From positions 1-64,000 of the forward strand of contig DXJV01000025.1 of assembly GCA_019056785.1 (NCBI GenBank): 64,000 nucleotides of DNA, in the 5' to 3' direction. The stretch is from Candidatus Heimdallarchaeota archaeon. GTDB taxonomy: Archaea > Asgardarchaeota > Heimdallarchaeia > JABLTI01. This document shows, one piece after another, positions 5,138 through 63,998 of this stretch. A program made the translations under genes and the position numbers. The notes under the pieces are model-generated. The model saw only the letters and a program-made list of their open reading frames with translations. It did no database searches and was not told where the DNA came from. Within the stretch, counting starts at the first letter, position 1. Each line of letters starts with the position of its first letter.

Positions 5138-5914
5138 GTGAGAGAAATGTTAATTGAATTATATGAAATTACAGAAGATGGGGAAGATATTCAGATTGAC
5201 CCAAATGATGTGAAAGTGACACACGATAGCTTATTAATTGTCGTCTCTTTTGATAGTCGTCGTATCTACCTTTTCAAAGGTTCCAATGTTTCCATTGTAC
5301 AGAAATTTGCTTCTGCTAGAAAAGCATCTGCCTTGCGTTTGCAGAAAGGGGGGTATCCAATTATACATATCGAAGAAGCAGAAGGGATAGATGAAGAATT
5401 TAAGCCCATCCTCGAATATTTGGGAGGGATAGTTGATGAGGAAGAAAAGGAGAAGTCCGTCGAACAACCAAGGAATCCTCCTCCCGCTCAAATTGAGAAA
5501 CCAAAACCCCCACCCTCTAAAACGGTTACAACAAAGACGACAACAACAACAACAACTAAGAAAAAGACTACAAAGACAACAACATCAAAGAAAACAACCC
5601 CAACCAAAACGAAACAACCAGCTAAAAGAAAAGGGTTAAAACCACCTGAAGACATGCCACCAAAATTAGCCAAAGTTTATACGGCAATGACGGCTCTAGA
5701 ATCACCGGCAAAATCGAGTTGTGACTATGTTTTGATTGGTAACAAACTCTACCTCGTTATCGGCGAAAACAAAAGTGATTTATCGCAAGGAAAATTCTCC
5801 TTTGAAGAAGTAACAACTTTGCCTGAGGGAGTTTTTCCAGTGGAGAACTACTATCCTAGAATTTTAGTCTCGAGAAAGAAGATTCTGGGAGTCGAATTGT
5901 GGGCTCGAAGATAG
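5138..5914 (+). CDS. Gelsolin-domain protein (single gelsolin repeat, Pro/Thr/Lys-rich linker, C-terminal domain; Asgard 1DGelX-like)
   Basis: N-terminal ~95 aa follow the gelsolin repeat pattern (DSLLIVV..RRIYLFKGSNVSIVQKFASARKASALR..IIHIEEAEG..EEF..LGG), then a low-complexity linker and an ~85-aa domain ending 'LPEGVF..YYPRILV..ILGVELW'. Start may be the ATG at 5147. Confidence 0.7.
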   Translation: MREMLIELYEITEDGEDIQIDPNDVKVTHDSLLIVVSFDSRRIYLFKGSNVSIVQKFASARKASALRLQKGGYPIIHIEEAEGIDEEFKPILEYLGGIVDEEEKEKSVEQPRNPPPAQIEKPKPPPSKTVTTKTTTTTTTKKKTTKTTTSKKTTPTKTKQPAKRKGLKPPEDMPPKLAKVYTAMTALESPAKSSCDYVLIGNKLYLVIGENKSDLSQGKFSFEEVTTLPEGVFPVENYYPRILVSRKKILGVELWARR

Positions 5915-5981
5915 TTTATCACTTTTCAAATAATATAAAAATGAAGAGATTAATATATTGATAAGACTCGAGTGTAAAATT

Positions 5982-5998
5982 AGGAGGAACCAGAAATT
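5982..5998 (+). promoter_or_regulatory. Shine-Dalgarno AGGAGG plus putative non-canonical ATT start codon of the GTPase
   Basis: AGGAGG at 5982-5987, 8-nt spacer, ATT at 5996-5998 in frame with the GTPase; in-frame TAG at 5981-5983 closes the frame upstream. Confidence 0.7.
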
Positions 5999-6595
5999 TC
6001 GCGACAAAAAGGCCCCCAATATCAACATTTATTTAAAGTAATTATTGTAGGAGCTGGCAAGGTGGGGAAGACAAGCTTAACAATTCGTTTTGCAGAGGAT
6101 CGTTTCAGAGAATCTTATCTTCCCACGCTAGGGGTTGATTTCTTAACGAAAAACCTCGTCATCGATAATAAGCATATTAAACTACAATTATGGGATACCG
6201 GCGGGCAAGAATTTGTCATGTCGCTATTACCTTTTTATTTCTCAGGCGCAGCTGGGGGCGTACTTGTATTTGATATAACCAATCGAAACTCCTTTAACAG
6301 CTTGGATTACTGGCTCAAACAAATCAGGCAAAACGCAGGTGATATTCCAGTCATACTAGCAGGAAACAAAATCGATATTGCTGAACAGCGAAAGGTAACA
6401 ACAGAAGAGGGGCAAGAATTCGCAAAAGAGAAGAATTTATTCTACCTTGAAACCTCTGCTAAGACAGGGGTCAGTGTGCCGGACCTCTTTGAAGGGCTTG
6501 TGAAAGAGATCATGAAAAGAGAAAAAGATAAAGAAAAGAAGAAAAAGGAACCCGAGGAAGAAGAAACGGAGTTTAGTTTCTGGCAAACCGCGTGA
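5996..6595 (+). CDS. Rab-like small GTPase (Ras superfamily)
   Basis: In-frame extension upstream of the called GTG (6062) gives 'HLFKVIIVGAGKVGKTS' (beta1 + G1). Also G2 'PTLGVDF', G3 'KLQLWDTGGQE', G4 'GNKID', G5 'ETSAK', RabF5-like 'LVFDIT'. No C-terminal Cys prenylation motif. Confidence 0.92.
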   Translation: MSRQKGPQYQHLFKVIIVGAGKVGKTSLTIRFAEDRFRESYLPTLGVDFLTKNLVIDNKHIKLQLWDTGGQEFVMSLLPFYFSGAAGGVLVFDITNRNSFNSLDYWLKQIRQNAGDIPVILAGNKIDIAEQRKVTTEEGQEFAKEKNLFYLETSAKTGVSVPDLFEGLVKEIMKREKDKEKKKKEPEEEETEFSFWQTA

Positions 6596-6636
6596 TTTTT
6601 TAGGAAAAAACAATGTTCTTTTTTTCTCTTCTTTTT

Positions 6637-7437
6637 TTAAGCTGATGGTAAATTTATCCCTTCAAAGGAGGTTGCAGTTTTCCAAAGGGAATCTGCAAAC
6701 CGTTCCCAGAGCTTTGCAAAACTTTCGTTATCACTCCAAGTGGCCATAATACCCAATTCGATACCACCCTCTAATTGAGCGTAGGCGCCTTGCAGGATTT
6801 CACGAGAATCAGTAATAACCCAAATTGCATGGAAATTCTCGGAGACTCGAACCTCTGCAAATTCAGCCAAACTCATTAAAATATTAACTTCGTTTGGATT
6901 ATCAATACCATCTTTCCCGGTAATAATTTTAATGCTTTTTAGGAAACTGCTTGCTTCTTTTAACACTTGATCAACGCCATAAAGCTGCAAATCAAAAGAA
7001 CTGTCGATGCCAATATTAACTGTTTCAGTTGCATCCATTATCATATCTTTGATTTTACTAAAGACAGCCTGGGCGCCACGGAGAATCCACAATTCAGGGA
7101 TAAATGATTTCTTGCTCCGCTCATAAAGCGCAAAGAGTTTTTGTTCAGTAATTTGAAAAGCTTTTTCATATTCACTGCGAAGCTCTTTCATAACTGCATC
7201 AGGACTCCGGGGACGATAACGATTTGCACTTGTATCACTTTCTTGAGCAAAAACCAATCCCCGCTCCTTTAAACTATCAATTACTGAATAGACCTTATTT
7301 GCAGGGACACCACTTGCTTTTGATATTTCCGAAGCTGTTGCGACCCCAAGTCCAACTAACGCAGTGTAAACTTTGGCTTGATATTCATTAAAACCTAATT
7401 TTTTCAATTCTTCAATGATGTCTTGTGTGAAGCTCAA
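6637..7437 (-). CDS. TrmB-family transcriptional regulator
   Basis: wHTH 'LKKLGFNEYQAKVYTAL..TASEISKASGVP..KVYSVIDSLKERGLV' plus a PLD-like effector domain. Likely start is TTG at 7437 after a GGTGG SD; the ORF-track extension to 7572 looks non-coding. Confidence 0.88.
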   Translation of the reverse strand: MSFTQDIIEELKKLGFNEYQAKVYTALVGLGVATASEISKASGVPANKVYSVIDSLKERGLVFAQESDTSANRYRPRSPDAVMKELRSEYEKAFQITEQKLFALYERSKKSFIPELWILRGAQAVFSKIKDMIMDATETVNIGIDSSFDLQLYGVDQVLKEASSFLKSIKIITGKDGIDNPNEVNILMSLAEFAEVRVSENFHAIWVITDSREILQGAYAQLEGGIELGIMATWSDNESFAKLWERFADSLWKTATSFEGINLPSA

Positions 7438-7669
7438 GCAGTTACCACCATGGTAGTATATACCAATAATAACATAAAAGCGTTTTTGTAGGATGATATT
7501 AAAAAAACTTCTATAGAAATGAAAGAGAAAAAAAGCTGGATATGTGATAATAGGATGTTTGCTTGGTAACATCAGAATGAGATTAGCTGCTGGTTGTAAC
7601 GAGTATTAGAGTGTTATAACTCTTTAATAAAGAAAAAAAGGATTTATTAAATGCCTCACCTCTCACCTC

Positions 7670-63233: not shown

Positions 63234-63998
63234 TCAACTTTGGCTGATGGATTCTAAAATCAACTGCTCAAAGAAACGCCCCTTTGTATAGAAAAGGTCT
63301 GCCGCTTGTTGGCCAATATAGGATTCTACCAATCCGGCTAGAGAATCCAATGTTTTGAGAAAATTAGAACGCATATATTCTCGCAAACCTTCATACAGAA
63401 AGTTTCGAATTGTCTGTGACTGTTTTTGCCTGGGAGTGATTAGAGGAAGGAGGGAAGTCAAATTAAGGTTAAGTTCGGTTTTATCTTCTCCCTTTTTAGT
63501 GAGTTTGCAACAATGAGTTTTATCAAAATAAATAGCTAGAAGCTCAGCTGGGAAGGATATCGTAGCCAACGGAAGAAGAAAAGCATTTGCTCTTTGACTA
63601 TATCTTACAAAAAGATCATCTGAAAGTATAGCAAAGACTCGCGAGATAGCAGTTCGCACGGCATGATTGAACAAAACGAAAACTTCATCTTCAATTGTCT
63701 TGCGAATGATAATTGTCTGTGCTGTTTTCTCGCCCTTAGTCGCTTCTTCCTGTAAATTCATAAGAATTTTTGCTTCAATAGAACCCTTTTGGACATCCTT
63801 TTTGACCAGATCCCAAAGAAGCTTTTCATGTAATTTATCAAAAAATGCCGAATCACGAACCCATGTTGAGGCATAAACTTCTACAATACGCTGATATCCA
63901 CCAAAAGTTGAAGTTAATTGCTTTTTATTTTGTGTAAATGTTGGTGAGTATGCTTTCAAGGAAAATCCGGGGAAGGATTTCTTAGAATAATACTGAAT
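63234..63998 (-). CDS. C-terminal part of a paralog of the 57388..60498 giant protein (5' end beyond the window)
   Basis: Frame is open to the window edge. 'TIIIRKTIEDEVFVLFNHAVRTAISRVFAILSDD' vs 'VTIIRTTLEEEIVPAFNKIVRTALSDAFSIFKED', and 'LVESYIGQQAADLFY' vs 'LIERYIGSSAADTFY'. Confidence 0.8.
   Translation of the reverse strand: MQYYSKKSFPGFSLKAYSPTFTQNKKQLTSTFGGYQRIVEVYASTWVRDSAFFDKLHEKLLWDLVKKDVQKGSIEAKILMNLQEEATKGEKTAQTIIIRKTIEDEVFVLFNHAVRTAISRVFAILSDDLFVRYSQRANAFLLPLATISFPAELLAIYFDKTHCCKLTKKGEDKTELNLNLTSLLPLITPRQKQSQTIRNFLYEGLREYMRSNFLKTLDSLAGLVESYIGQQAADLFYTKGRFFEQLILESISQS

Follow-up and report, generated by a model that had tools for sequence, protein, structure and literature searches.

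The gene at 5996-6595 on the + strand of the window (that is, the whole stretch of 64,000 nucleotides analysed here, which belongs to contig C80 of a 2.87-Mb Heimdallarchaeota MAG with a completeness of 82.5%) very probably encodes a complete Rab-like small GTPase of 199 residues, whose translation would be initiated at an AUU codon (5996-5998) behind a Shine-Dalgarno (SD) box. The first-pass annotation had proposed ATT 5996 as the start codon. The proposal is supported by the joint occurrence of ATT and GGAG in 7 of about 10 ortholog lineages, by the ATG found at the same position in the lineage of L045, and by the boundary of protein-level constraint.

Along the + strand, the in-frame stop codon TAG (5981-5983), which closes the frame upstream, overlaps the SD box AGGAGG (5982-5987), and the box is followed after 8 nt by ATT (5996-5998), all of them placed in the frame of the Ras/Rab-family open reading frame (ORF). 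The limits of this ORF, with 199 codons and the TGA stop at 6593-6595, were called with the start codons of NCBI table 11, and its translation from ATT 5996 opens with ISRQKGPQYQHLFKVIIVGAGKVGKTS. The frame from there to GTG 6062 reads I-S-R-Q-K-G-P-Q-Y-Q-H-L-F-K-V-I-I-V-G-A-G-K, and no near-cognate codon but ATT is found from the in-frame TAG to the strand beta-1. As the first-pass annotation had stated, a perfect AGGAGG lies 8 nt before ATT 5996, and ATG, GTG and TTG are all absent in frame from 5984-6061, that is, between the TAG and the P-loop. The first canonical start is the GTG at 6062-6064, which encodes the Val of the P-loop GAGKVGKTS (G1, 6050-6076). Two other possibilities for the start region were rejected. 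Read-through of the TAG, or its decoding as Pyl, is irrelevant, because a second in-frame stop, TAA, lies two codons 5' of it with no start between the two; and a short upstream ORF with its own ATG (5941-5961) is not kept in the relatives.

The motif AGGAGG-N8-ATT is observed twice in the window against an expectation of 0.59, and at least two copies were present in 11 of 100 shuffled sequences. The motif is thus within chance, and its significance rests on the comparative evidence. The second copy (63448-63464) falls within a long ORF of the minus strand (63234-63998), antisense to it, and is a chance match. A 101-nt segment around the start folds less stably than its shuffled counterparts (minimum free energy -5.7 kcal/mol, z +1.7), and folding of the start region revealed no RNA structure covering the SD box or the start codon, as expected of an accessible initiation region.

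The product starting at ATT has the hallmarks of a small GTPase of the Ras superfamily. It matches the Pfam Ras profile (PF00071) with an E value of 7e-55 over profile positions 1-161, and position 1 of the profile is aligned to the Phe of FKVIIVG, 5' of GTG 6062. As in the Ras superfamily, a P-loop of the form GxxxxGK[ST] is present with beta-1 ahead of it, and a translation start no later than 6032 is required for the whole unit (FKVIIVGAGKVGKTS). The motifs WDTGGQE (G3), GNKID (G4) and ETSAK (G5) are all found in the translation and align to Rab2A. The best solved relatives are Rab2A (1z0a), Rab6 and Rab1 with E values of about 1e-43, and almost all of the best 60 PDB matches are Rab/Ypt proteins. 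The alignment to the solved Rabs begins at GPQYQHLFK, a Rab-typical lead-in to beta-1, which is also a tryptic peptide within the N-terminal segment (M)SRQKGPQYQHLFKVIIVGAGK that the ATT start would add. The stretches TLGVDF, KLQLWDTGGQE and VLVFDIT are similar to RabF1, RabF2 and RabF5, while the RabF3/F4 region is divergent. With the eukaryotic Rabs (Rab2A, Rab6, Rab1A and Rab8A) the archaeal protein shares the G1-G5 motifs, the switch-I Thr in YLPTLGVDF and the Y-x-x-LFK lead-in, whereas its switch II (FVMSLLPFYFSGA) is divergent. Unlike the Rab family proper, it has no C-terminal Cys prenylation motif (CC, CXC or CCXX); the protein ends in ...EEETEFSFWQTA, and the tail is free of Cys. This tail (6569-6592) follows a linker rich in Lys and Glu and has an aromatic pattern, [DE]F[SN]FWQ[KTQ][AGSD], which is kept in all orthologs; the conserved FSFWQ-type peptide could bind a membrane or a partner.

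The upstream neighbour, at 5138-5914 on the + strand, is a co-oriented gelsolin-like gene with a weak Pfam Gelsolin match. Wherever an ortholog locus was looked up, a gelsolin-like gene (product of about 250 aa) preceded the GTPase gene and a convergent TrmB gene followed it; in the window these three genes, the last encoding a TrmB-family regulator, span 5138-7572. Among the 41 relatives searched, the GTPase family was not found outside one Heimdallarchaeial family. Two contigs that carry the gene in its usual neighbourhood have been deposited under other names, namely DATKYH010000052.1 (L043) as 'candidate division Zixibacteria bacterium' and DATKZI010000013.1 (L033) as 'Candidatus Bathyarchaeia archaeon'; both were probably mis-binned or given a wrong taxon label.

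For the comparison at the start codon, 17 distinct sequences of orthologs from MAGs of Heimdallarchaeota, 72-90% identical, were gathered from relatives of the same genus or family, from public genome and metagenome contigs and from look-ups of public proteins; their tree is star-like, with about 10 lineages. The codon homologous to ATT 5996 is ATT in seven of the lineages, ATA in two and ATG in one. ATT is carried by our sequence, L049, L027/43, L044, L048, L003/4/5/28, L006/46 and L007/9. The first-pass annotation had left room for a private mutation of an ATG common to all orthologs; the orthologs mostly have ATT at this codon, and not ATG, which speaks against such a mutation. ATA is carried by L008 and L010/41/11, each of which has an ATG or TTG 1-5 codons upstream. 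The ATG occurs in L045 (P0024), where TAA TGA immediately precedes it, and consequently the L045 protein can start only there. It should be noted that L045 is the only ortholog in which ATG was seen at this codon on DNA; P0018, P0019, P0031 and P0037 are annotated with M at the protein level only, and the DNA codon comparison left them out together with P0055 and P0064, which are truncated. In our sequence, L027/43, L044 and L048, no canonical start occurs anywhere between the upstream stop and the end of the P-loop, and in L007/9 and L046 the Leu codon of HLFK, a TTG, is the single canonical candidate. In other orthologs, in-frame canonical starts are found upstream at six positions (codons -1, -2, -3, -5, -9 and -16), and these could serve instead in their own lineages.

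The SD sequence is conserved along with the start codon. GGAG is found at -13 to -10 in nearly all orthologs and at -14 to -11 in L044, and L045 has GAGG at -12 to -9; no other element is conserved in the 40 nt before the start codon. The copy in L044 does not follow the codon register, and stop codons precede the GGAG of our sequence, L008 and L044. Therefore, the GGAG is a nucleotide signal and not a coding one. Compared with L049, the closest relative, 15 of the 20 nt before ATT are identical, while in the 40 nt further upstream only 10 are, so the block of SD, spacer and ATT is itself conserved. A TATA-like element (AATAATATAAAA, 5929-5940, + strand), a candidate archaeal promoter, is also kept between our sequence and L049, and the remaining spacer is randomised. 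Most orthologs have elements resembling AATAAC-TAATATAA 48-78 nt before the start. The placement of the TATA-like element suggests a putative transcription start site (TSS) that would give a leader of 25-45 nt. A scan for sigma-70 promoters and intrinsic terminators returned nothing, and these models are not applicable to archaea.

Coding constraint begins at the same place. Pairwise Nei-Gojobori proportions were computed for nine lineage representatives, among which synonymous sites are saturated throughout. The ratio pN/pS is 0.75 for codons -9 to -6 and 0.62 for codons -3 to -1, and it drops to 0.30 for codons 2-11 and 0.11 for codons 12-18, against 0.20 for the gene body. That is, the boundary of protein-level constraint falls exactly at the ATT codon. 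Between our sequence and L049, pN/pS is 0.08 overall and likewise 0.08 for codons 2-22, and the 21 codons that would be lost with a GTG start differ by 8 synonymous and 2 nonsynonymous changes. These low values indicate that the gene is intact and under selection, and that its N-terminal segment is translated.

SD pairing is in use in a minority of the genes of this MAG. The 3' end of the 16S rRNA reads ...GGATCACCTCCT, with the anti-SD CCTCCT present. Before the first ATG of 2130 long ORFs, the G content rises from about 16% to 34% near -12, and in the start-anchored profile of the same ORFs the 5' ends of GGAG peak at -14 to -12; the GGAG of the GTPase gene begins at -13, within this peak. 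A 4-mer SD match precedes about 28% of the first ATGs against a background of 2.8%, so the 6-nt SD of the GTPase gene is stronger than most. It should be noted that counting triplets downstream of every GGAGG gave no ATG peak, a misleading result, because GGAGG in coding regions swamps the signal.

Based on these features, AGGAGG (5982-5987) would pair with the anti-SD CCUCCU of the 16S rRNA, position the 30S subunit and put AUU in the P site, where the initiator Met-tRNA would read it with a third-position mismatch, and the GTPase would then begin with Met-Ser-Arg-Gln-Lys. Such a complex has been observed in another archaeon: the 30S:aIF1A:aIF2:Met-tRNAi complex of Saccharolobus (formerly Sulfolobus) solfataricus binds AUU mRNA, and aIF1 suppresses this binding (PMC4705826). 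In the cases measured, AUU initiates poorly, and archaeal aIF1 discriminates against it (PMC4705826). The analysis shows the layout of the start region and how far it is kept, the place where coding constraint sets in, the SD use of this genome and the uneven annotation; AUU initiation itself, the promoter and the TSS are inferred, as is any low expression or aIF1 sensitivity that the weak codon may bring. The arrangement of SD and AUU probably goes back to the ancestor of the orthogroup, whose members were found in one Heimdallarchaeial family, and most lineages have kept it.

Initiation at ATT may have no regulatory meaning: a weak start, nearly neutral, could be tolerated in a gene of low need, with a strong SD compensating for it, and we regard this as quite possible. 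The third-position states T, A and G are not far from drift, which their pattern (7, 2 and 1 among about 10 lineages, respectively) exceeds weakly. The SD is weakest in the ATG lineage (GAGG only) and comprises 5-6 nt in the ATT lineages, which fits simple compensation. In addition, nothing points to a fidelity circuit at the gene of aIF1 (SUI1; C60:63621-63940, minus strand), which reads ATT ATG CCA with a GAGG spaced for the ATG, and thus has a canonical ATG start in this MAG. However, T is over-represented despite the saturated synonymous sites, and both ATA lineages have acquired a canonical start no more than five codons away, which fits the notion of ATA as a poorer start in need of compensation. 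Together with the weaker SD of the ATG lineage, these are hints of a role for the weak codon, and it is plausible, by analogy, that AUU limits the dosage of the GTPase. The fuller proposal would make AUU an ancestral, selected throttle, which keeps a gelsolin-linked GTPase low and ties its synthesis to aIF1 stringency in the manner of infC; on the present evidence we consider it rather unlikely. If true, it would be an archaeal counterpart of the infC logic acting on a eukaryotic-signature module of cytoskeleton and trafficking.

Alternatively, the ATT could be an internal Ile codon, in a gene newly broken when a change from AAG to TAG cut off its canonical start. In fact, L049 has AAG where our sequence has TAG 5981-5983, with an in-frame ATG 16 codons upstream, several other orthologs also have in-frame ATG or TTG upstream, and the alternation of ATT and ATA resembles synonymous drift between Ile codons. 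However, the upstream starts are scattered over six positions, and neutral evolution marks the residues that separate them from ATT, with the pN/pS of 0.62-0.75 given above. In four lineages, stop codons lie 1-7 codons above ATT with no start between, and L045 has its ATG exactly at the ATT position, after TAA TGA. Moreover, in L049 and L011 the upstream ATGs directly adjoin the TATA-like element, and transcription would probably begin 3' of them. Our gene, with its pN/pS of 0.08, is under strong purifying selection and is found in identical sequence on several contigs. A gene newly broken is therefore very unlikely.

Translation from GTG 6062, as chosen by Prodigal-type pipelines, would yield a 177-residue remnant (P0003, P0124), inactive or regulatory, that lacks beta-1 and the greater part of the P-loop; we judge it highly improbable that this GTG is the true start. 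The first-pass annotation had described this GTG as the first standard start, inside the P-loop, and both the reading of the frame and the Pfam Ras alignment bear this out; since the Ras profile begins 5' of it, a GTG start would delete beta-1 and GAGK. An AGGAG does lie 8 nt before GTG 6062, and it probably explains the preference of gene finders for the false start. However, it is merely made by the V-G-A codons GTA GGA GCT (6045-6064) and is not present in the orthologs, most of which have GTA or GTT, and not GTG, at this Val. The 21 codons that would be discarded show the same pN/pS as the rest of the gene. As is well established for P-loop NTPases, a G domain needs its GxxxxGK to bind nucleotide, and the product of a GTG start would not be expected to do so.

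As for a sequencing or assembly error with ATG as the true codon, a possibility that the first-pass annotation had named, a single base decides the matter and the source is a MAG that is 82.5% complete, but L025, a contig from an independent JGI metagenome, matches the region without a difference, ATT included, and 12 further ortholog sequences from different assemblies also have ATT, so that the chance of such an error is negligible.

The consequence for annotation is the one that had been anticipated, namely that automated pipelines truncate the protein. The 177-aa product starting at GTG is found as P0003, P0124, P0125 and P0126, which fall in the same 90% cluster as P0121, a 199-aa entry of NCBI nr that equals the translation of 5996-6595 except for M in place of I at residue 1. 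Among the 66 public orthologs, 21 are annotated short, beginning within or after beta-1 with N-termini such as MFKVIIVG, VGKTS, MPTLGVDF and MTKNL. Since these copies lack beta-1 or the P-loop, surveys of eukaryotic-signature proteins would score them as inactive or fragmentary. The ATT start call is not new to the databases, and homology-aware annotation already makes it: NCBI calls ATT for the orthologs P0004 and P0016, and positions 401-403 of both L043 and L044 are att, with annotated products beginning MSQTRR... and MSSRRP..., respectively.

We also searched the whole genome for near-cognate starts, taking ORFs of 120 codons or more and, in each, the stretch from the preceding stop to the first canonical start. 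Behind a strict GGAG, the codons ATT, ATA and ATC show no significant excess genome-wide (11/871 against 0.76%), and the same holds behind a broad SD (35/994 against a background of 2.8%, p = 0.10). The absence of a genome-wide excess implies that the mechanism is not general, but gene-specific or rare here; at most about 10-15 genes of the genome could have such Ile-codon starts. Among the Ras paralogs, the regex screen caught 7 of 28, and of these 7 only the ATT gene is without a canonical start. A second case, and a convincing one, is an ABC-transporter ATPase on the minus strand of C22 (strand coordinate 7904), where TGA AGA ATA stands behind GAGGGA and the first canonical start, a GTG, comes 45 codons downstream, three codons before Walker A; this protein probably starts at the ATA, or at an ATT 13 codons on. 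Ahead of first canonical starts, ACG alone is clearly enriched behind SD motifs (18/217, p = 5e-5). Possible ACG starts lie on the minus strands of C47 (27636) and C60 (10056), one possible ACG start having the form TAGGAGG-N8-ACG ACG ahead of a zinc-ribbon N-terminus. An aragorn scan for unusual initiator tRNAs listed 14 tRNAs in this MAG, which is 82.5% complete.

The GTPase gene is a well-documented case of a known phenomenon, near-cognate AUU initiation behind an SD, and its ATT start reveals no new mechanism. Heimdallarchaeia are the archaeal group nearest to eukaryotes, and the gene makes a comparative case for SD-guided AUU initiation in this group, even though the initiation apparatus is of the eukaryotic type and its aIF1 disfavours AUU. 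Its orthologs form a natural series of start regions, with ATT, with ATA plus a compensating start, and with ATG plus a weaker SD.

AUU starts are classical in bacterial infC, which encodes IF3, and pcnB of E. coli is another AUU-initiated gene. With these genes the GTPase gene has in common an AUU start behind an SD, its conservation among orthologs, and a codon disfavoured by a fidelity factor (IF3 and aIF1, respectively). As in the infC type, a canonical start for the conserved N-terminus is absent (our sequence, L027/43, L044 and L048), AUU recurs in most of the lineages, and the SD stands at a functional spacing. In contrast to infC, the machinery here is archaeal, with aIF1, aIF1A, aIF2 and an unformylated Met-tRNAi, and the gene encodes a Rab-like GTPase and not an initiation factor, so that there is no obvious autoregulatory loop. 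Another parallel is the single-gene precedent AtubA of the Kariarchaeaceae, another Heimdallarchaeial family, for which an ATT start behind a ribosome-binding site (RBS) has been proposed (PMC13394414). In both cases, which come from Heimdallarchaeia, the deposited protein lacks its first beta-strand, and an upstream ATT, suitably spaced from an RBS, restores it. However, AtubA is a tubulin, and its case rests on one operon and structure prediction (PMC13394414), whereas that of the GTPase gene rests on 17 ortholog sequences, the constraint boundary and an ATG-bearing lineage.
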